The notes below the pieces were generated by a model. The model was not told the DNA's origin. It worked only from the letters and a program-made list of their open reading frames with translations, and searched no databases. From Opitutales bacterium (GTDB lineage Bacteria; Verrucomicrobiota; Verrucomicrobiia; Opitutales; Coraliomargaritaceae), in NCBI GenBank assembly GCA_049606355.1, contig JBMYVL010000005.1, positions 60,001-92,000 of the forward strand: a stretch of 32,000 nucleotides of DNA, given 5' to 3'. The translations under genes and the position numbers were made by a program. Within the stretch, counting starts at the first letter, position 1. Every line of letters starts with the position of its first letter. Shown here piece by piece: positions 10,360 to 31,672 of the stretch.

Positions 10360-10440
<81 letters not shown>

Positions 10441-17454: not shown

Positions 17455-18981
17455 TTAAACCGCGGTTTCGCTGAAGCGCTGCTCGCGGATAACGGTGATC
17501 TCAATACTGCCCGGATAGTTGAGCTCACTTTCAATACGCGTACGAATTTTTCGAGCGATTTGGCGCGCCTCTTCATCACTGACGACTTCCGGTTCAACAA
17601 TCACCCGGACTTCACGCCCGGCTTGGATTGCATAGGCATCACTGACGCCCGACTGCTTGAGGGCAATGGCCTCAATGCTGCGCACCCGCTGAATAAAGCC
17701 GTCGATCGACGACGCCCGCGCCCCCGGCCGCACGGCCGACAGAGAATCCGCCACCATCACCAAGCCGGCATAGGCGCTCTCCGGCTCCACTTCTTTATGG
17801 TGGGCCGCGACGGCATTGACCACTCGCGCATCTTCGCCGTGCTGCTTGATCACATCCGCACCCACGATCGCATGGCTGCCCGAATAGGCCTCGTCGATCG
17901 CCTTGCCGAGATCATGAAAAAGGCCCGCGCGCTTCGCCAGCGTCACATCCAAGCCGATTTCCGAAGCGAGCAGCGCACACAGGTTGGCCACTTCGACCGA
18001 GTGCGCCAGCGTGTTCTGATTGTTGGAGAGTCGGTAGTGCAGTTTGCCGAGGATGCCAATCACCTCGGGATGCACATTCGATAAGCGCAACTCACGCACT
18101 GCGCCTTCACCCAGCTCGATGACGTTGTTATTCATCTCCTCTTCCGCCTGCAGCACCGCCTCCTCGATGCTTGCCGGGTGAATCCGGCCATCGCGCAGCA
18201 GGGCATCGAGAGCAATGCGGGCGACTTCCCGCCGCACCGGATCGAAGCAGGAAATGAGCACCGAATCCGGGGTTTCATCAATCATCAGCGTGGTACCGGT
18301 CGCATGCTCAAAGGTGCGAATGTTACGCCCTTCGCGACCAATAATGCGGCCCTTCATTTCATCACTGGGCAGGCTGACCACGGTTGCGGTGGCGTCGTGC
18401 ATGGGCTGACTGGTGATGCGCTGCATTGCCGCCAACAAGACGCGCCGCGCCTCTTCGGCGAGCTCCGACTCTGTTTTTCCTAAATATTGCTGACGCAAGT
18501 CCTCCAACTCCTGCGCACAGGCTTGCTCGGTGCTGCGGATCAGGTGCTGGCGCGCCTGTTCGGTATCCATCTGCGCGATTTGGTGAAGCTTCATGCGGTA
18601 CAAACGGCGCGTCTTCTCGGCTTCGTGTTCGGCCTCTTCCACCTGTTGCTGCGCTTCACTCACCGTTTTTTCGCGCTTGCTCAACAGCACGGCACGTTCT
18701 TCGAGCGACTGCGCCGTGCGACGCTGCTCCCGCTGTACGGTCTCGAGTTCGTCGGCCTGTTTGACACGTGCGCGCTCCAATTCCGCTTCCTTCGATTTGA
18801 AGGCCAAGTCTGCATTCGCTTTTTCCTCACGCAGTGTGAGTTGTGCCTCACGTGCTTCGACGTCCGCCTTTTCGCGCATGGCTTCAAACTCGCGTAGCGT
18901 CCCACCACAGCGGAAACGAGCATGCAGAAAAGCCCCGAGGACAGCGCCCATGCCCAACCCAATCAATATTTCTAAAATCAT
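17455..18981 (-). CDS. rny: Ribonuclease Y
   Basis: 508 aa. N-terminal TM helix [19 protein letters not shown], a long E/R/K/Q coiled-coil region, a KH domain ([21 protein letters not shown]) and an HD domain (LAHSVEV...LFHDLGKA). Confidence 0.92.
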
Positions 18982-19133: not shown

Positions 19134-20858
19134 CTACCGGCGGTTCTGGAACCATTGCTGCACTTCGGCAGCGCTGCGGCAGTTCAACACCTGCTCGGCG
19201 CGCAACCAGCCCTTACGCGCGATGTTAACGCCCGCACGGTAACAGTCCAGGCCCTCGGTGCTGTGCGCATCGGGGTTGATCGCACAGCGTAAGCCCCGCT
19301 CCGCAGCGCGATGCCAATAGCGCCAATCCAGATCCAGGCGGTTCGGATTTGCGTTAATTTCAATGATCACTTGGTTGGCGATCGCTGCATCAATGACCTT
19401 GTGGAGATCAATTTGGTATGGCTCACGCCGCAGCAGCAAGCGCCCCGTCGGATGCCCGAGCATGGTGGTCGCCGGGTGCTCGATCGCGCGAATCACCCGC
19501 GCAGTCATCTCCGCTTCCGACTGGCTGAAGGATGAATGCACCGACACCACGGTGTAGTCGAGGGCGGCCAGGGTTGCGTCTGCGAGGTCCAGCCTACCGT
19601 CCGGCAAGATATCGCATTCGATGCCCGCAAAGACGTGTACCGGCGACGCCCCCGATTCATTAAAATGGCGCACTGCCTCGATCAACTTCAAGACCCGCAC
19701 ATCATCCAAACCATTCGCCTGGTAACTGGCCTTCGAGTGGTCGGCGAGGCCAATATACTCAAAGCCCAGCTGTTCCGCCGCGGCGGCCATCTCATGGATC
19801 GTCGCGCGGCCGTCCGACGCGGTCGTGTGATTGTGGAATACGCCGCGTACATCCGCCACCTCGATGAGCTTTGGTAATTGCCCGGCTTCTGCGGCGTCCA
19901 GTTCGCCCATGCCCTCACGTAATTCGGGCGGAATCTCCGCCAACCCCAGCAAGGCAAATAGCTCCGCCTCCGAGTCAACTGAGGGCACGTCTTCCCCGGC
20001 TTTTGCCTTCAAGCCCCATTCGCTGAGGCTATAGCCGCGCGCCAAGGCACGCTGACGCAAGGCAACATTGTGCTCCTTGGATCCGGTAAAATGATGTAGG
20101 GCAAAGGCGAATTGGGCGGCGGGCACCACGCGCAGGTCTGCCTGCAAGCCGCTTTCAAAACGCACACTGGATTTCGTACTGCCCTGCGCAGTCACCTCCT
20201 GCACGCCGGGTTGCGCGATGAACCAAGCCATAATCGGTTCCGCATCGGCCGCTGCGACGATGAAGTCCAAATCGCCGACCGTTTCACGCAAGCGCCGCAA
20301 GCTGCCTGCCACTTCAGCACGTTCGACCTGTGGCAGCGCACGCAAGCCCTGTACAATCGGCTCCGCGATCGCCGCCGCCGTCCACCACAGGTGTCGTTTC
20401 GCATAGGCGGCTCGATTGCGAATGCCCGTCACGATCTTTTCCTGCGACTTCGGCCCGAAGCCTTTTAGCGCAGCGACGGCTCCCTGCTGGCAAGCTTTCA
20501 GTAGCGCGTCGATACTTTCGACCCCAAGCGCATCGTGTAGTTTTTTAACCTTTTTGCCCCCCAAGCCGGGAATCTCGAGCATCTCGATCAGGCCGGGCGC
20601 CACCGAAGCCCGCAGCTTTGTGTAATAATCCAGCTCCCCCGTCGCGTGGAGCGTCTCGATCTTTTCCACCAAGGCTGCGCCAATGCCCTTCATTCCCGCC
20701 AGCCGACCCTCCGCAATCAGCTCGCCAAGATCGGCCTCCATGGTCTCGAGCGCACGCGCACCGGCGGAGTAGGCACGAATCTTGAACGGGTTGTCGCCCT
20801 TCAGCTCCAAGAGCACGGCGATGTCTTCTAAAATAGCAATGATGTCGGCTTTATGCAT
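19134..20858 (-). CDS. polX: Family X DNA polymerase with C-terminal PHP (phosphoesterase) domain (PolX)
   Basis: 574 aa. N-terminal HhH region [38 protein letters not shown], the Pol-beta-like nucleotidyltransferase core ([17 protein letters not shown]), and a C-terminal PHP region ([11 protein letters not shown]...GLADHS...INPDAHS). Confidence 0.9.
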
Positions 20859-22065
20859 AGGATGGTGTTAAGGTATCCAATGGGCTGACGATGCCAAATG
20901 GCTTTTGCAACAGCTGCGTGTAAATTTGTGTCGCCTGCCGGGAGGGATGCCCGAGTAAGGCCTGAACGGTATCCAAGGCCGCGCCAGCCTCCAGCAGATG
21001 CACGGCAAAGCTATGGCGGAAGACTTGCGGCGTGACCCGCTTTGCAATCGCGGCCTTGTTGGCCGCCGAGCGCACCGCTTGTTGGTAGGAATTTTCGAGC
21101 ACATGTGGGCGATAGCGCGCGCCGCTTGGCGGATCTTCCGTAAGTTTACTGTGCGGGAATAGGTACTGCCAGCTCCACTCAGTCCGTGCCGCAGCATATT
21201 TCCGCGCGAGCGCTGCGGGCATCGCGGCTCCGGCGTACTGCTTGGCCAGATCGGCTTGGTGGACGGCACGCACCTGCTGCAGTTGCAGCTGGAGTGAGTC
21301 GACCAAAGCCTGCGGCAAGACTGTGGTGCGCGCCACCGCTCCGCGACAGACACGAACGACCAACCGCCCGCGGTCCACATCCACATCCCGAATTCGTAGG
21401 CGCAACAACTCATTCAGCCGCAAGCCCGCGCCGTAGTGTAAGCGCCCCATCAAGCGAAACCGAGTCGGCAAGCACTCCAGCAGCTGATAAACTTCCGATT
21501 TCGACAAGACCGTCGGCAATTTTCGATCGACCGCCCGGCGTGCTTGCGCGGCACGCTCAGGAACCGCTTGTTGCAGCACATGCCGAAAAAAGAAACACAA
21601 GGCATTATAGGTCTGATTCTGCGTGGAGGTGGAGGTCGGCGTAGCCGCTGCCAGATGGCTTAAAAACTGCAAGGCCTCCGCCGCATCCACCTGCATGGCA
21701 TCCCTGGGATGAACAAAGGCCTGAAAGCGCCGCAGGCAACCCATGTAGGCTTTTTCGGTACTGGCGGCCACATGCTCACGGCGCAGCGCGCGGCGCATCC
21801 TTTGCCCAGCAATATCAGTGGCCACGACCTCACTAAAAAACCAGTTCAGCGCCGCCTCCCGCTGCGTCGAATCGCCCTGCGTGCGCGGGTTTGAGTGGTG
21901 CAGCTCACGGAGAAAGATGTGGCTATTTTCGCGCTCAAACGGCTCGCCCAAGCCCTTTTTTGCACAATAGCCGAAATACCACTGCAGCGTCGCCCACCAA
22001 GCACGCCGCTGCGCAATCCGCACCCCGGTATGCTCTTTCAAGCGCAATTGCAGCCATTCGTACAT
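20851..22065 (-). CDS. Integron-integrase-like tyrosine recombinase with an approximately 70-90 aa N-terminal extension
   Basis: From about residue 90, 404 aa align by eye without gaps to IntI1 (recalled from memory). Matches include the SAM-like N-domain ([13 protein letters not shown]...[20 protein letters not shown]), the catalytic Arg context YGAGLRLNE, and the IntI-specific insertion ([24 protein letters not shown]...[12 protein letters not shown]). [14 protein letters not shown] and IYTQ (Tyr) are also present. The stop overlaps the polX start by 8 nt. An alternative shorter start is the ATG at 21798. Confidence 0.8.
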
Positions 22066-22078
22066 CTCACATATTATT

Positions 22079-22097
22079 TACATGATAAATTCATGTA
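22079..22097. promoter_or_regulatory. Perfect 7-bp inverted repeat (candidate operator) just upstream of the IntI-like start codon
   Basis: TACATGA-TAAAT-TCATGTA at 22079-22097, 14-32 nt upstream (minus-strand sense) of the ATG at 22065. It sits inside a markedly AT-rich block; line 22081-22140 has 17/60 G+C by hand count. Confidence 0.35.
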
Positions 22098-22270
22098 TTC
22101 AATCATTTAATATAGGACATATACATATGGCTCTGTTTCGGCCGATCAATGCTCAAGTAGCAGCTAAATCCTCCCAAAAACCGCTTTTATCGCTCTATAA
22201 AGCCCTCAAAATCTGCTGATGCGTGGCAGCAAGAGGTCTCATTTATTTAATAGTACACTACATAGTGACT

Positions 22271-22372
22271 CCAACGAAGCTGCCTGAAGCCAACCCAGCT
22301 GCCCTCGCGGTGCGGCAACGGTTTCACTGACCCTGTGGCGAGCACTGAGGCGAACCAAGGAGCTGCCAAGCC
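22271..22372. repeat. Imperfect direct repeat pair CCAA(C/G)G(A)AGCTGCC(TG)AAGCC, with a third AGCTGCC core between them
   Basis: CCAACGAAGCTGCCTGAAGCC at 22271-22291 and CCAAGGAGCTGCCAAGCC at 22355-22372. AGCTGCC also occurs at 22297-22303. The second copy runs into the 14-nt palindrome CAAGCCTAGGCTTG (22367-22380). Confidence 0.4.
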
Positions 22373-22396
22373 TAGGCTTGCTGAGCGTGGCGACGG

Positions 22397-23572
22397 CTAA
22401 TCCAGCCGTTTGGGCAGTTTCGATGCGGGATCGATCCCAACACTGCCGTTGCCTTGCAATAATTCGAGCAGGCGCTGCCCGCAAAAGCCTGCTCGCCACC
22501 CGCGCAACATGCGATGGTCCTCGGGCTTGCCGTCAGCTGCTTCAAGCACCAAAGCGGTGATCTCAGATCGATTGCCGATCAGAGCAGGGTCCACCTTGGC
22601 CGCCAAGCAAGCCCCCTTAATGTAGGCCAATGCCAAATCAACGCGCGCTTCGTAGCCATCGTCCGGTGCCGCGCCGCGGTGGTTGCCGTTGGGTAAATCG
22701 GGCAAATCGCCCGCGACCCCGCGCTCAATCGCCGCCCATATTTTATTACGGTTCCGCTCGAGGGTCTTCTCGGTGAGGCCCTTCATCGGCTTGATGGCAT
22801 CGGCGGTAGCCGGCAAGCGCTTGGTCAATGCCACAATTGCATCGTCGGATAAAATGAAATTACGCGGCCGGTTGCGACGGCGGGCACTGCGCTCCCGCCA
22901 GGCGCCGAGGCAGCGAAGCACATTGCGCTGCTGATGGGTGAGTGCGCCACTGCCCCGCACCCGTGGCATTTCGGCATCTGGGTCCGACTCGTGGTAGAGC
23001 GCCTCTTGCTCGTAATACTGCATTTCATCCTCAATCCACTCCCGCCGGCCGAGGGCGTCAGCTTTGGCAAGGATCCGCTGCATGAGCTCCGTCGAGTGCG
23101 CGACATCATCAATTGCATACTTGAGCTGCGCCTCGGTGAGTGGGCGCGCCAGCCAATCCGATTGCGTTTCGGTTTTTTCAAGGCGCACCTTCAGTAAGGT
23201 CTTTAATAAATCACGTAAGGATATGGTCGCCGACAGGCCGACAAAGCCCGCGCTCCGCTGCGTATCAAAAATATTTTTCGGAAAGGCGCCACAAGCGCGC
23301 TTCAAAATCGTCAGGTCCTGCTGCGCATCGTGTAAAATCTTAACAGTGCCCGCATCCGCCATCAACTCCGCAAAAGGACTCCAATCTTCGATAGCGAGCG
23401 CATCAATCAAATCCGCGTTGCCGTCGGGATAGCCCATTTGCACCACCCCCAAAGTCGGATAATAGGTACGGTTCCAGACAAATTCGGTATCGATACCGAC
23501 GGCTCCGGCAGTGCGTGCAACTTGGCAGGCCTCCGCCAGCGCTTCTGTGGTTGTGATCATATCGGGAAACAA
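22397..23572 (-). CDS. rnd: Ribonuclease D (DEDDy 3'-5' exonuclease plus HRDC domain)
   Basis: 391 aa. GAVGIDTEFVWNRTYYPTLGVVQM matches ExoI of RNase D. ILHDAQQDL (ExoII) and YAIDDVAHS (ExoIII with Tyr) are present. An HRDC-like region RNFILSDDAIVALTKRLP follows. Confidence 0.88.
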   Translation of the reverse strand: MFPDMITTTEALAEACQVARTAGAVGIDTEFVWNRTYYPTLGVVQMGYPDGNADLIDALAIEDWSPFAELMADAGTVKILHDAQQDLTILKRACGAFPKNIFDTQRSAGFVGLSATISLRDLLKTLLKVRLEKTETQSDWLARPLTEAQLKYAIDDVAHSTELMQRILAKADALGRREWIEDEMQYYEQEALYHESDPDAEMPRVRGSGALTHQQRNVLRCLGAWRERSARRRNRPRNFILSDDAIVALTKRLPATADAIKPMKGLTEKTLERNRNKIWAAIERGVAGDLPDLPNGNHRGAAPDDGYEARVDLALAYIKGACLAAKVDPALIGNRSEITALVLEAADGKPEDHRMLRGWRAGFCGQRLLELLQGNGSVGIDPASKLPKRLD

Positions 23573-23721
23573 AGTCGGGCAAAGACGTACGAAAGAAAAG
23601 CAGATTTTTTACTGGTGGCCTGATGTGAATCCGTCGTGCTGATGGCTTGAAGCCGCGCGAACTTTACTTCAGACCTATCCCATTCCTTATGCATTACACC
23701 CGAAGGCCCGCTCCTGAGCCC

Positions 23722-24747
<1,026 letters not shown>

Positions 24748-27000: not shown

Positions 27001-28959
27001 ATGCGCCTTCGATTCACAACGCTTCTCATTGTTCTCAACCTTATCGCCTTCGGGATTATTTGGATACTCGACACCCGCCACGAGGACGCCGACACCCAGA
27101 TGGGGGGTCTCGCCGGGCGCATTGGGCGAGCCGTCATCGAGGCGAATCGCATCGAACTGGATGGACAAGGCCTACCGGAAGCTCGTGTCCTTGAACGCCG
27201 TGGCTCCGAGTGGACCTTGGCGAAGCCACTGCAATGGCCTGCGAACAGCTTTGCAGTCAACCGCATGCTGAATCAGCTGCAATTTATTGAAGCAGAAGCC
27301 TCCTTCACTATCGAGGAGATCGAGCGCACCGGACAAGGCTTGGCAGACTACGGCCTGGAGACACCGCTCATCAAACTCACCATTGGCAGCAGTGAGAACC
27401 CGACCCAACTGTTCATCGGCAAGCCAACCGATATCGGCAACAACGTGTACCTGCTTGGCCCGGATCAGGCGGAAATTTTTGTCGTCAGTCGTCAAGTAAT
27501 CGACAGCTTACTGGTTGAACTGAGTGACTTGCGCAGTCGTTCGGTATTTAATATCCCGGTATTCGAAGTCGAAGCACTCAGCCTACAAACCTACAACGGC
27601 AGCGCACCTCAAAATGGCGAGCTGAAGGTACGACTGGCGCGCACATCAACAGGCTGGCTATTTGAAGCGCCGTTGAATGCCGAAGCGGATCCGGCTCTCG
27701 TCGCTACAACAATCAATACACTGACCGCAGCGAAGGTGGCGCGTTTTCCGGAAGGAGATGATGCGGTCGTGCAAGGCCTGGAAAACCCCTCGATGCGCAT
27801 CACCCTACAGGGCAACAAGCGGCAGCAAACCTTGCTATTGGGCAACCAAGACCCTGCCGCCCGCACTGAAGCGACTTATTTCGCCAAACTGGAAGACAAT
27901 CCGACAGTTTTCACACTACCCGCGCAGCCCTTCGATGCACTCCGCGAGGCGCAAGCTGCGCTGCGCGAGCGCAACTTTATCAGCTTCGACCCAGCTTCGC
28001 TGAATGGGATTGATATTAGCCAAGGGGAATTACAAATACGTATCCAGAAACTGGAGACAGGCGACTGGCAAGTGATACGAAGTGACTCGGGGACTGCCAT
28101 CCAGTCCTATCAAGCCGATCCAACTATTTTAAGGACCCTCATGCAGGATCTCCGCAATCTTCGTGCGATTAATTTTGCGTCCGATGCGCCCAATTCCAGC
28201 GACCTAGACCAGCTTGGCTTCAATGCCCCGCGGCGCACGATCACGCTGACAAGCCCTACGGAGAGCCTCACAGTGCAATTGGCGCATCCTGAGACGAACA
28301 ATACTCAGCTCTATGCACGTACGAGCGAATTGGAATACATTTACGAAGTGGACCGTCGAGCCACACTTGAACTTCTTTCGCTCAATGCACTCAAATACCG
28401 CGACCGGCGCCTCGAAACACTGCCGGAGGCAGCGCAAATCACGGCGCTCAAACTTGAGAATCTTGAAACCGGTCAAGTTATCTTCGAGGCAGCGCTGAGC
28501 GACGACCGCAGCACATGGGACAGCGAGCTGATGGACCAGGAACCATCCAGACGCGAAAGCATCCTTGCGCTGCTCGAAGCTATGCGTGCCTTCAACGTTA
28601 AAAATTATCTGCTCGATGAATTCCTACCCGCGTATCCGCTCGAACCCAGCAAAACAATTCCGTGGGCCTACCGCCTGACGGCCGACTTACTTCTCCCGGG
28701 CGACGATTTGGGACAACAGGATAGCCGTAGTTACGTTTTTACCAAGCGACTTTCCGGAACCATACAAGTGGGCGGCTCCGAACAGCACGAAACTATCTTT
28801 GAAGTTACGCCCACCATACTCGATGCGCTGTATCACTTTAATGAGAGCATGCAGCTGCCCCCCGAAGCGACCGGCACGCCAGTCCCGACGCCAGCAGCTA
28901 TTGAGAAACTCCCTGCAGCACAACCGATGGACCCATCCGGATTGACGCCGAATTCTTAA
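27001..28959 (+). CDS. DUF4340-like membrane-anchored protein
   Basis: Starts 5 nt after the GldG-like stop. N-terminal anchor LRFTTLLIVLNLIAFGIIWIL. The long, repetitive beta-rich extracytoplasmic region and the position immediately after a GldG-like gene are the usual context of DUF4340. The assignment rests on context plus general resemblance only. Confidence 0.6.
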   Translation: MRLRFTTLLIVLNLIAFGIIWILDTRHEDADTQMGGLAGRIGRAVIEANRIELDGQGLPEARVLERRGSEWTLAKPLQWPANSFAVNRMLNQLQFIEAEASFTIEEIERTGQGLADYGLETPLIKLTIGSSENPTQLFIGKPTDIGNNVYLLGPDQAEIFVVSRQVIDSLLVELSDLRSRSVFNIPVFEVEALSLQTYNGSAPQNGELKVRLARTSTGWLFEAPLNAEADPALVATTINTLTAAKVARFPEGDDAVVQGLENPSMRITLQGNKRQQTLLLGNQDPAARTEATYFAKLEDNPTVFTLPAQPFDALREAQAALRERNFISFDPASLNGIDISQGELQIRIQKLETGDWQVIRSDSGTAIQSYQADPTILRTLMQDLRNLRAINFASDAPNSSDLDQLGFNAPRRTITLTSPTESLTVQLAHPETNNTQLYARTSELEYIYEVDRRATLELLSLNALKYRDRRLETLPEAAQITALKLENLETGQVIFEAALSDDRSTWDSELMDQEPSRRESILALLEAMRAFNVKNYLLDEFLPAYPLEPSKTIPWAYRLTADLLLPGDDLGQQDSRSYVFTKRLSGTIQVGGSEQHETIFEVTPTILDALYHFNESMQLPPEATGTPVPTPAAIEKLPAAQPMDPSGLTPNS

Positions 28960-28963
28960 GGCA

Positions 28964-31672
28964 ATGCCTAAACCACACCGCAGCACTTCGCGCCGGCGAG
29001 TTTCTGAGCAGTGGCTCCGCGCCCTTCTCTTGGTACTCCTCGCCGCACAATGCTTCGCGATTGGCTGCTTACTCGCCTACGAAAAACTTTCCCTACCGAG
29101 TCGATGGGTGAACCCATGGCTGCACAAACAAGCAGTCGACGGCTTCTACTTTCAGACTGAAGCCATCCACCTGCGCCTTAACGGCGACTTGGAGCTGCAC
29201 AAGGTCAGCCTGCACTCGACCGATCATGCTTCAGCCTTACTCGAAGCTGATGGAGCAGTCGCCCGAGCACGACTATTCGATGGTGTCCGCCCCCAACTGG
29301 GCCTTCGCCACCTGGTGCTCACCAATGGCACACTCTACATGCCCGCGGTCTATGCACCCAATGGCGTGCGCACTCCAATCCTGCAAAAAATTGGCTTTCG
29401 CTTCAGTCCGACCGAAGCCGCCTTAAACTTGGAGCACTTCGTCGCGGCGCATGAAGCGATTCGGATTCGAGGGTCACTGCAATGGCCGCTCACAGGCGCA
29501 CCGATCGACCCACCGCAAAAACAAGCGCAATTACTCAAACAGATCTACAGCAGTCTCGCTACCGCCTTAAAAGCCAAGACCTATGCGGCCCTGTTGGATT
29601 CCCCAAGCCTCTATGTTGACCTGCATAGCGAAGACGGCAAAGCGCTACAGATCGATGCACATCTATACAGCCCGAAGCTGGAGTATGCCGGCAGCAGCGG
29701 CAACAACCTGCACGTACAAGGCAAACTGCAGGTCCATGAGGCACGACTCGAATGTACCGAACCGCTGAGCTTTACACTCGAGAATTTTTCTGCACCGCAC
29801 TACGCCCTAAAGGCAGGCTCGATCGTTGGACAATTGCCAGCATTGAATTGGCAAGCGATCACTCAGGGAGCGTGGCCCGCGTTTGATGTCGCCACTGAAT
29901 ATCTGGAATTCAGACAATTCAATCTGCATGCGCCACAGATAAGTATTGATCCGCATCTTTTCCCGACAGTGACATTGGCAGGCGCTATGGGTGGCTATGG
30001 CGGCACTTCGCGTTTTCAAGCTACGCTCGATTTGCAGCAACTAAATGGCCACGCGCACACTCAGGGCACAGTCGATCTGCTGCAGTTGCTACCCTCCGGA
30101 TTACAACAGCACCTCCCCGATTACCGTTTTGAATCGGCTCCCTATTGTGACTTAAAACTACATTTTGAAAACGGGTTTGCGCTGAGCCGTGCCGAATTTC
30201 ATGCGCAGGCCCACAAGCCGCAACTCGCCGGAGTCGCGTTCGATATGCTGCGGACTCGAGGCAGCTATGCGCAGCAGCAATTAGAGCTTAAACAATTCAG
30301 TTTCGATCGTGGTCAACAGCACCTTGACCTACACTTGCACTACGATCTTGAAAACCAGGCCTATCAAACGGGGCTGTACGGTAGCATTATCCCCAACGAA
30401 TACAATGCACTGATGCCACGCTGGTGGCGGAACCTCTTCAACGATAACTTTCGCTTCACTTCCAACAGTGAAGTCCATGGAGACTTTCGTATTCATGGCG
30501 GCAGCTCTCCCTTTCGGACGGATCTCTACTATGGCACGATTCAGGGCAAAGACCTGAGTTACCGAGCGGTACCTATTGATGCAGGCAGCTTAATTGTACG
30601 CGGTCGCCGCAGTTATTCAGAGATCCACCAATTGCATGCACGCAGCGGTGAGGGCTTTTTGCGTGGCGATCTACAATTCACGAGTTTTCGCGATGCAATT
30701 CGAGCACCGGCTTCGATACGCTATGCCATCAATGCTGAGCTGCCGCTCCAATCCGCACAAAAATTAGTGACCCCTACGATCGCCAAAACTATCGAACGCT
30801 TTAGTGCCGAGCAATTGGTTCAGGTCGAATTAAATGGAGCGCAATTCAATGAAGCGCTGTACCCACAATTCGAAGATAAAAGCTTTGTCCACCTCACCGC
30901 GAATTCTAAGGGTCCAATACAGTATGCCCGTGTGCCACTTGATTATCTACGCTTCCGCCTCGACGCCGCACGCCGCTTCACTGCGATGCGCGAATTAACG
31001 TTCGGCTTTGCGAATGGAACCGGCACGGGAGCCATCGACATCGACTCCACGGATAAAAGCCAGCCCGCAGAGTTACACCTGCAGCTCTCTTTGAAAGATG
31101 CGGACTACAAGAAATCCCTGCAATCCATGCCAACGTCAGCAGATCTCGAGCGAAGCCTCGAAACCGCGCCCGAATCATCTCCCGACCAAGGACGGGAGGA
31201 CGCACGAGTCGCCGTCGACTTACACGCGAACGGCCCTGCAGATGATTTGTATCAACTGAACGGATACGGATCTTTCATTGTCAATGATGATGCGCTTGGC
31301 TCGATCCAGTTACTCGGCCCATTATCCAAAGTGCTACAAGAAACACCGCTCGGCTTTACGTCGTTTAATTTAAACCGAATGCATGGTGTTTTTTCGATTG
31401 GCGAAGCGCAACTCGACTTTTCCTCGCTCTCCATCGATGGTCCTCAGGCGAAAATTAATGCATCCGGCACCTTGCAACTACGCGACCATGCCCTGGACAT
31501 GCTAGTCGGCGTCGACCTATTTGGTAACATTGTCGGCACTACCAATGGCGTCCAACAGACCATCAAGATGCTGAATCCGCTCAATTACTTACTGCAGTTT
31601 CAACTTACAGGTACACTGCAGCAGCAGCGCTTCCGGTCGCTCTTCGATCCGCGCAATTTTTTACCGTTCTGA
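28964..31672 (+). CDS. Large (902 aa) membrane-anchored protein, AsmA/YhdP-like (tentative)
   Basis: Starts 4 nt after the DUF4340 stop. Basic N-terminus plus a single TM (WLRALLLVLLAAQCFAIGCLLAY). The body is long and beta-rich with no catalytic motifs. The C-terminal segment FTSFNLNRMHGVFSIGEAQLDFSSLSIDGPQAKINASGTLQLRDHALDMLVGVDLF resembles the AsmA_2 C-terminal region. The CDS itself is solid; the family call is tentative. Confidence 0.55.
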   Translation: MPKPHRSTSRRRVSEQWLRALLLVLLAAQCFAIGCLLAYEKLSLPSRWVNPWLHKQAVDGFYFQTEAIHLRLNGDLELHKVSLHSTDHASALLEADGAVARARLFDGVRPQLGLRHLVLTNGTLYMPAVYAPNGVRTPILQKIGFRFSPTEAALNLEHFVAAHEAIRIRGSLQWPLTGAPIDPPQKQAQLLKQIYSSLATALKAKTYAALLDSPSLYVDLHSEDGKALQIDAHLYSPKLEYAGSSGNNLHVQGKLQVHEARLECTEPLSFTLENFSAPHYALKAGSIVGQLPALNWQAITQGAWPAFDVATEYLEFRQFNLHAPQISIDPHLFPTVTLAGAMGGYGGTSRFQATLDLQQLNGHAHTQGTVDLLQLLPSGLQQHLPDYRFESAPYCDLKLHFENGFALSRAEFHAQAHKPQLAGVAFDMLRTRGSYAQQQLELKQFSFDRGQQHLDLHLHYDLENQAYQTGLYGSIIPNEYNALMPRWWRNLFNDNFRFTSNSEVHGDFRIHGGSSPFRTDLYYGTIQGKDLSYRAVPIDAGSLIVRGRRSYSEIHQLHARSGEGFLRGDLQFTSFRDAIRAPASIRYAINAELPLQSAQKLVTPTIAKTIERFSAEQLVQVELNGAQFNEALYPQFEDKSFVHLTANSKGPIQYARVPLDYLRFRLDAARRFTAMRELTFGFANGTGTGAIDIDSTDKSQPAELHLQLSLKDADYKKSLQSMPTSADLERSLETAPESSPDQGREDARVAVDLHANGPADDLYQLNGYGSFIVNDDALGSIQLLGPLSKVLQETPLGFTSFNLNRMHGVFSIGEAQLDFSSLSIDGPQAKINASGTLQLRDHALDMLVGVDLFGNIVGTTNGVQQTIKMLNPLNYLLQFQLTGTLQQQRFRSLFDPRNFLPF

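Follow-up and report, generated by a model that had tools for sequence, protein, structure and literature searches.

What does an integron integrase do in a chromosome in which no cassette array can be found beside it? This question is raised by a gene, designated intI* here, in a stretch of 32,000 nucleotides from an Opitutales bacterium (Verrucomicrobiota, Coraliomargaritaceae; assembly GCA_049606355.1, contig JBMYVL010000005.1, positions 60,001 to 92,000 of the forward strand), referred to as the window throughout. The original prediction, made from the letters of the window, offered two explanations for this gene, an empty integron platform (In0) or a domesticated paralogue of the integron integrase IntI. 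The analysis described here favors domestication on the basis of synteny, an overlap with the gene polX, a ratio of nonsynonymous to synonymous substitution rates (dN/dS) of ~0.15 and the loss of otherwise invariant residues. The label of paralogue is not retained, as the gene is an ortholog within the IntI clade that is fixed at one site. We give a probability of roughly 60% to the reading in which an integron integrase was fixed upstream of polX, its array was lost, and the protein has since been kept (exapted, or domesticated) for a function that does not involve cassettes. The features on which the argument is built are listed below with their positions in the window.

20851..22065, minus strand: intI*, a full-length open reading frame (ORF) derived from an integron integrase, 404 amino acids (ORF listing, TIGR02249 and VchIntIA match)
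21541..21801, minus strand: canonical SAM-like core-binding domain, amino acids 89-175 (Pfam PF13495)
20854..21540, minus strand: catalytic domain with the IntI-specific insertion, amino acids 176-404 (Pfam PF00589 and VchIntIA alignment)
19134..20858, minus strand: polX, downstream and co-oriented, encoding a family X DNA polymerase with a PHP domain (Pfam HHH_8, HHH_5, DNA_pol_B_thumb and PHP)
20851..20858, minus strand: the 8-nt overlap ATGCATAA, in which the polX ATG lies within the last intI* codons and the stop (ORF coordinates and sequence)

The protein had been described as integron-integrase-like with the insertion that sets IntI proteins apart, and this identity is confirmed by both a profile search and an alignment. 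The NCBIfam model for integron integrases, TIGR02249, matches residues 89-399 over model positions 4-315 with 313.7 bits, above its curated cut-off of 265. Pfam places PF13495 (SAM_4) at residues 88-169 (E 4.8e-19) and PF00589 (Phage_integrase) at residues 187-386 (E 3.3e-26). The top solved relative is VchIntIA (2a3v; E 1.2e-57, 36% identity), and the alignment between the two proteins is unbroken across the IntI-specific insertion (ALxRK...W.WQYLFP...DP.SG..R.H). An AlphaFold2 model built with 73 homologues has a predicted local distance difference test (pLDDT) score of 87.6, and its top match in the PDB is again 2a3v (E 8.7e-22, target template-modeling (TM) score 0.86). An identity as XerC or XerD was considered and rejected, as TIGR02225 scored 120 against a cut-off of 329.6 and TIGR02224 scored 107.5 against 335, and the IntI insertion is present.

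The attI site and the cassette array lie directly upstream of intI. The corresponding side of intI* is occupied by the following features.

22066..22396, minus strand: spacer of 331 nt between rnd and intI*, in which conservation with the marine lineage described below is limited to the proximal ~60 nt (alignment)
22397..23572, minus strand: rnd, the upstream neighbor, encoding an RNase D-like 3'-5' exonuclease with an HRDC domain (Pfam PF01612 and PF00570)

This arrangement is as had been noted from the sequence (~330 nt followed by the 3' end of rnd), and neither attI nor attC is recognizable in the spacer. Other relatives of intI* do have arrays. The integrase genes encoding P0003 (L002, a Verrucomicrobiota metagenome-assembled genome (MAG)) and P0015 (L008) are divergent from runs of small ORFs, many of which have no Pfam match; the other ORFs of these runs encode toxin-antitoxin pairs, acetyltransferases and a glyoxalase, and the setting of P0008 is similar. 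The repeats between these small ORFs have attC architecture. In an alignment of 15 attC sites from beside P0003 and P0015, 82% of the cells were paired and 56 double-sided compensatory cells were found in 14 of the 19 pairs, values that none of 500 shuffles reached, and shifting the pairing register destroyed the signal. These 15 sites were used to build a clade-specific attC covariance model, designated R1, with a regular-expression and minimum-free-energy scan serving solely to find the seed sites. R1 picks up attC sites outside the seed in L008 and L003, and it finds arrays upstream of the canonical relatives L014 and L018-L020 too. As had been claimed at the outset, no attC sites are seen in the window: R1 finds none with filters off, the best score being 11.5 bits (E 0.55) inside an ABC-transporter gene. 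R1 also finds none in L001, L004-7, L010-13, L017 or L021, nor in any polX-linked locus, with 10-20 kb searched around each copy. A hand-written attC scanner based on the pairing of R-box and L-box proved insensitive, as it detected 2-6 of the more than 10 true sites, and also unspecific, as its counts in the window were similar; it was replaced by the covariance model.

The regions L008:4500-9750 and L002:250-4300 are sedentary arrays in Verrucomicrobiota MAGs. Their attC sites are 57-127 nt long and, on the bottom strand, start with AACGTCGAG and end with TTGTT; the cassettes carry toxin-antitoxin pairs (VapBC, ParDE and YoeB/Phd) and a GNAT acetyltransferase, in addition to many ORFs that lack a Pfam match.

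An integrase without an array could belong to an ordinary In0, that is, a functional enzyme with an unrecognizable attI and tolerated sequence variants, the substrates of which would be attC arrays elsewhere in the genome (CALINs) that it uses in trans. In0 elements and CALINs are common (PMC4889954), and intI* passes the IntI-specific model. The absence of attC sites within 10-20 kb at ~10 loci argues against this explanation, which we regard as rather unlikely in view of the evidence from synteny and the active site presented below.

The genomic position of intI* is conserved. The last member of the conserved block lies downstream of polX:

17455..18981, minus strand: rny, encoding RNase Y (Pfam and synteny)

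The order rnd-intI*-polX-rny is present in every copy of a sub-lineage that comprises the window species and marine MAGs of the Puniceicoccaceae and Coraliomargarita. The near-identical metagenome contigs L001 (98%) and L017 (97% identical) have the same order and the 8-nt overlap. A marine IntI-like protein, P0010, which is encoded on three contigs and is 50-53% identical to the window's protein, is found in the same order and with the same overlap. Further marine copies are present in the GTDB representatives L010 (Puniceicoccaceae), L011 (Coraliomargarita), L012 (Verrucomicrobiota) and L013 and in the TARA scaffold L021. The 8-nt overlap between intI* and polX recurs in L004-6, L010-12 and L021, so that synteny and overlap extend to at least four GTDB species representatives plus metagenomes. 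The contig L013, which is labeled Porticoccaceae, is probably mis-binned because it is syntenic with the Verrucomicrobiota loci. In L001:13103-14408, RNase Y is encoded by two genes (296 and 144 amino acids) compared with a single ORF of 508 amino acids in the window, probably due to a frameshift or an assembly error.

Between the window branch and the marine branch the neighboring proteins are 73-83% identical (PolX 79%, RNase Y 81-83%, Rnd 78-81%), compared with 50-53% for the IntI* proteins. In a neighbor-joining tree the polX-linked sequences form one clade (100/100 bootstraps) with long branches, nested within a canonical group of integrases that have an N-terminal extension, and a single origin is supported independently of the tree because the synteny is shared. 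Equally similar orthologs of polX (78-80% identical) are not preceded by an integrase gene in isolates of Coraliomargarita, in Lentimonas or in another complete genome, and the linkage between intI* and polX is thus specific to this lineage. A fixed position with an overlap into polX is unlike the platforms of integrons and speaks against an In0. In L022 and L025, both of which lack intI*, the adjacency of polX and rny (and a DUF481 gene) is kept. The gene upstream of polX varies among L022-L025 (menE-like, ribB-like or NTP-transferase), and this variation makes the region before polX look like a hot spot for rearrangements.

The active site of intI* has been altered, as was recognized from an alignment made by eye. 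That alignment proved correct for both the change from Lys to Arg in the hairpin and the change from His to Gln in the HxxR box when compared with VchIntIA and with the columns of 118 canonical IntI sequences, which serve as the reference set here; residue numbers are those of the intI* protein unless IntI1 numbering is stated. The positions concerned are given below.

21343..21345, minus strand: codon 241, CGC (Arg), at the position of the catalytic Lys between beta2 and beta3 (IntI1 K171; alignment)
21025..21027, minus strand: codon 347, CAA (Gln), at the position of the HxxR His (IntI1 H277) in TPQVFRH (alignment)
20920..20922, minus strand: codon 382 (Tyr), the retained nucleophile position (invariant column)

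The aligned motifs of intI* and VchIntIA are cRGavaR and gKGgknR, tpQvfRH and tcHtlRH, and IYTQ and IYTH; the canonical form of the hairpin motif is GKGDKDR, in place of which intI* has CRGAVAR. Position 241 is Lys in 99% and position 347 is His in 100% of the 118 canonical sequences, and in Shewanella IntI both K171 and H277 are conserved in 182 of 182 sequences (PMC9229058), a level of conservation that argues against variants tolerated in a working In0. The catalytic set of IntI1 (R146-K171-H277-R280-H303-Y312) is incomplete in intI*, which has R216, R241, Q347, R350, H373 and Y382. Both Arg residues, the His of the LLGH motif and the Tyr had been reported as retained, and this is the case (R216, R350, H373 and Y382); together with E219 they are kept in intI* and invariant throughout the polX-linked lineage, and this retention of R, E, R, H and Y would be in line with a functional In0 integrase.

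The changes extend beyond the catalytic residues. When the 74 columns of the alignment with a conservation of 93% or more among the canonical sequences were inspected, intI* was found to depart at 12 and P0010 of the marine branch at 21, compared with a median of 1 and no more than 7 for the canonical sequences themselves. The 12 changes in intI* are W110C, K241R, D245A, H320P, H347Q, T355V, D363A, I364L, R365D, T378A, H384Q and V385L. W110C had been considered as a derived marker of the polX-linked lineage and was dropped, as the same change is present in the canonical integrases of L018-20. Position 320 aligns with the first His of the RRHH motif of VchIntIA, a motif that in the 2a3v structure reportedly contacts an extrahelical attC base. 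The replacements are unlike in the two branches (window and marine, respectively: H347 to Q and R, H320 to P and N, R365 to D and H, D245 to A and C). The change from Lys to Arg is confined to the window lineage; its marine sister has Lys in a remodeled hairpin (NPAKVHVxR), Arg rather than Gln in place of the HxxR His, and an altered His after the second Arg (RH to RQ or RD). The marine branch has also lost K289 (the IntI1 K219 position) and has a 6-residue deletion within the IntI-specific insertion. That different residues occur in the two branches suggests that the constraint on the recombination chemistry and on the attC contacts was relaxed in their common ancestor. The loss of 12-21 near-invariant positions, among them H320 and R365, the further losses in the marine branch and the unlike replacements would all be difficult to reconcile with an In0 that still recombines cassettes.

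The expected consequences of these substitutions can be judged from other tyrosine recombinases. In Cre, all substitutions of Lys201 abolish recombination in vitro and K201R has only weak activity in vivo, which fits the expected ~100-fold loss of general-acid catalysis; His289 of Cre is tolerant, with H289Q being nearly wild type, and the equivalent H305Q in Flp is severely defective (PMC2943603). These mutants can be cited for the In0 explanation, since H289Q is nearly wild type and K201R retains trace activity in vivo (PMC2943603). Based on the Cre and Flp data and the conservation in Shewanella, intI* is expected to be a poor recombinase; its sequence does not suffice to declare the activity dead.

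The altered active site does not reflect decay of the gene. In three marine genomes, for which dS is unsaturated (0.48-0.80), dN/dS was 0.135-0.176 for IntI*, 0.11-0.12 for PolX and 0.06-0.08 for RNase Y, with values below 0.3 in every domain of IntI*, the catalytic domain included; between the window and L001, intI* has a dN/dS of 0.17. The ORF is intact, with 404-407 codons, in the window, L001, L017, L004-6, L010-12 and L021, and 9 of 10 copies have neither frameshifts nor deletions despite saturated synonymous divergence between the branches. Purifying selection acts on the protein over its entire length. The remaining copy, in L013, has an in-frame TGA at codon 230 (L013:8632-8634) in place of the Arg of LRLRVRD and is otherwise intact; the stop could be a recent real inactivation or a sequencing error. 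The intact ORFs and the dN/dS of 0.135-0.176, with this lone stop, led us to reject the status of a pseudogene. Purifying selection that reaches the catalytic domain (omega ~0.2) would also be expected of a functional In0 integrase.

A related idea is that intI* is a decaying relic whose frame is held open only for the polX promoter and for translational coupling, with a protein that has no function. The IntI* protein evolves far faster than its neighbors (50% compared with 73-83% identity), catalytic residues have been lost, L013 has a nonsense codon, and chromosomal intI genes commonly decay (10.1101/2025.06.18.660453), all of which would fit a relic. We nevertheless consider it very improbable. 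The overall dN/dS is well under the value of 1 expected for neutral evolution and similar to that of polX, with 0.04-0.12 in the N-terminal extension; 9 of 10 copies are free of frameshifts and deletions; and coupling constrains the continuity of the ORF only, not its amino-acid sequence.

It is also conceivable that the enzyme has been retargeted to a new chromosomal substrate, such as a dif-like site or an invertible segment, and remains catalytic but slower and differently regulated. That Tyr, Arg, Arg and His are still present in both branches, with purifying selection acting on each, is consistent with this, as is a conserved palindromic element just upstream of intI*:

22079..22097, minus strand: perfect palindrome TACATGA-ATTTA-TCATGTA, ending 14 nt before the ATG (sequence reading)

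Retargeting is improbable in our estimation, as no conserved pair of inverted or direct repeats flanks any segment of the locus, the genes follow one another in the same order in every copy without a trace of inversion or excision, and the His/Lys region drifts between the branches, which is unexpected under selection for catalysis. Around the palindrome lies a sequence that resembles a promoter (TTGAAT-18-AATAAT, 22102-22073); it ends 8 nt ahead of the ATG, and the match falls short of statistical significance. The marine lineage (L004, L011, L012 and L013) has an equivalent palindrome, ATGATAATTATCAT, just upstream of the intI* start, with the spacing of the arms off by 1 nt. The two elements suggest an operator and a nearly leaderless mRNA. 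In an informal check by eye, no LexA boxes of the types CTGT-N8-ACAG, GAAC-N4-GTTC or the TGTTC direct repeat of the Verrucomicrobia were seen in the 331-nt spacer, and the palindrome at 22079-22097 has no match to the familiar LexA-box types.

Several observations weigh against the reading of intI* as a domesticated integrase. None of the Tyr, the two Arg residues, the Glu and the second His has been lost, and recombination may persist; the change from His to Gln is nearly neutral in Cre (PMC2943603), and the hairpin Lys is still present in the marine branch. One copy, L013, has the nonsense codon described above. Clusters of attC sites may be located outside the 10-20 kb inspected for each copy, the monophyly of two long branches in the neighbor-joining tree may be inflated by long-branch attraction, and sister genera have PolX without intI*. 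The 8-nt overlap suggests that intI* and polX are translationally coupled and that both are co-expressed; it is also the basis for their presumed co-transcription, and the functional tie to PolX is putative.

The only role known for integron integrases is the recombination of cassettes, and dying chromosomal integrons normally show decay of intI. A cassette-less, altered yet conserved intI* that is joined to the gene of a repair polymerase would, if the reading is true, represent the domestication of the core enzyme of the integron. Full-text searches turned up neither a domesticated integron integrase nor an association between IntI and PolX, which is no proof of novelty. In the domestication reading, an integron integrase would have been fixed in the chromosome of a marine Puniceicoccaceae/Coraliomargarita-like ancestor (Verrucomicrobiota), directly upstream of polX, and the fixed integrase would then have lost its cassette array. 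The residues for catalysis and attC contact would have been relaxed, drifting differently in the two branches, and the protein would then have been retained by selection for a non-cassette role. The chemistry of cassette recombination would be strongly weakened or lost. DNA binding is suggested by the retention of the fold, of two domains for core binding and of the Arg/Arg/His/Tyr that bind phosphate; the IntI fold and its two core-binding domains may be used to bind DNA, with folded or structured single-stranded or branched DNA as the likely target, as is the case for IntI. The protein may be co-expressed, and possibly cooperate, with the PolX repair polymerase, and the retained R-R-H-Y would allow slow nicking or covalent attachment. 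A more specific proposal, which we put forward tentatively and hold to be possible rather than probable, is that intI* is an accessory of host DNA repair, that is, a structure-specific binder or a slow nickase that acts on hairpins and on branched or single-stranded DNA together with PolX/PHP. If this is true, intI* would be the first IntI recruited to a cellular function. The lineage also provides a natural experiment on which IntI residues are needed for the fold and DNA binding and which for the chemistry.

The second core-binding domain referred to above is located in the N-terminal extension of the protein.

21802..22065, minus strand: N-terminal extension, amino acids 1-88, a four-helix module and apparently a diverged second SAM-like core-binding domain

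The extension had been estimated at roughly 70-90 residues; it has 88 and is real coding sequence, as judged from its homologues and from dN/dS. At least 16 homologues (43-56% identity) align to intI* over the full length, residues 1-88 included, dN/dS within the marine sister group is 0.04-0.12 in the extension, and the alignment with the marine lineage shows conservation of the ~60 nt that precede the ATG at 22065, in contrast to the remainder of the spacer. Because of this conservation and the low dN/dS, the start at 22065 is right and a start at the internal ATG at 21798, which had been raised as the case against the extension, is not.

Several lines point to the extension being a diverged tandem duplicate of the core-binding domain. 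Its predicted helices (2-11, 17-37, 45-58 and 60-81) mirror those of the core-binding domain (85-96, 101-118, 128-140 and 146-163). With hhalign, the N-extension family matches the SAM-like domain with 97.8% probability (E 1e-12), and when the sequences that match the SAM profile alone are left out the match is 80% (E 1.4e-5) in an unchanged register; a narrow clade profile gave a probability of only 3%, and the signal emerged with the wider family. The extension of intI* alone matches the SAM hidden Markov model with an E of 0.0015, and the longer relatives P0050 and P0055 have two Pfam SAM_4 stretches each. An AlphaFold2 model of the isolated extension has a pLDDT of 86.7, and its best PDB matches are core-binding domains (archaeal Xer, query TM score 0.69; VchIntIA, 0.65; and Cre), with Foldseek E values above 1.

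An extension of at least 60 residues is present in 48 of 121 compared sequences (~40% of the closest environmental IntIs), and an architecture with an additional core-binding-like domain at the N-terminus seems to be widespread among IntI proteins; we know of no description of it. Among P0019-P0119 the extensions are 60-259 residues long and have the common signature W..L...YC...ALRWF. The suggestion that N-extended homologues might form a clade that lacks cassettes was not upheld: the N-extended relatives at L002, L008 and L018-20 have attC arrays and canonical GKGDKDR/HVLRH/IYTH motifs. Since N-extended canonical integrases adjoin genuine attC arrays, the extension is not tied to the loss of cassettes; it is a feature of a working integron clade and no mark of domestication. 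As an undescribed variant that is present also in IntIs with arrays, the additional domain may affect the recognition of attI or attC.

A few further observations concern other parts of the window. A tRNA-Pro(GGG) at 10364-10440 (plus strand) is the sole match to an RNA family (Rfam). A protein of 902 amino acids (28964-31672, plus strand), whose orthologs have no precomputed Pfam match, is 34-41% identical between the two lineages, and the adjoining DUF4340 protein (27001-28959, plus strand) is 59% identical; the pair lies downstream of a well-conserved ABC-transporter module and is fast-evolving within an otherwise conserved block. The ABC ATPase at 23647-24747 (plus strand) probably begins at an internal start and not at the TTG listed for it, as its marine orthologs align only from residue 26.

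Among known systems, intI* is most directly compared with the integron integrases VchIntIA/IntI4 and IntI1, with which it shares the fold and the IntI-specific insertion, and it nests among the cassette-associated IntIs. It differs from them in that it has neither a recognizable attI nor an attC array beside it, K171 and H277 (IntI1 numbering) are replaced by Arg and Gln along with ~10 more near-invariant changes, an extra N-terminal core-binding-like domain is present, and it occupies a fixed chromosomal place in an operon-like arrangement with polX. XerC and XerD belong to the same superfamily, are the closest relatives outside IntI and are also tyrosine recombinases fixed in the chromosome; for intI*, neither a partner recombinase nor a dif-like site was seen. 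The gene falls under the operational definition of In0 used by IntegronFinder (IntI profile, no attC in the flanking 4 kb; PMC4889954), to which the original definition adds attI. In0 elements are usually recent and mobile (class 1) or transient, with a canonical integrase, whereas intI* is conserved across species, has an altered active site and is joined to a housekeeping gene, features that the In0 category does not imply.

In Xanthomonas, the arrays outlast the chromosomal intI, which accumulates frameshifts, stops and deletions (10.1101/2025.06.18.660453). The two cases have in common an ancestral acquisition, a fixed locus (ilvD in Xanthomonas and polX for intI*) and, probably in the case of intI*, the loss of activity in descendants; they differ in that intI* has lost the array and has an intact ORF under purifying selection. 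TnsF of the Tn6022-like Tn7 transposons is an exapted, inactivated tyrosine recombinase (PMC10293859) and provides a precedent for the retention of this fold as a module for DNA binding and target selection, although its likeness to intI* is only conceptual. Membership of intI* in a TnsF-like class of inactive recombinases was rejected, as Y382, R216, R350 and H373 are retained and there is no sequence relationship. TnsF has no catalytic tyrosine pocket, contains zinc fingers and serves a transposon, whereas intI* is descended from IntI, keeps its Tyr/Arg/Arg/His and sits by a repair gene of the host.

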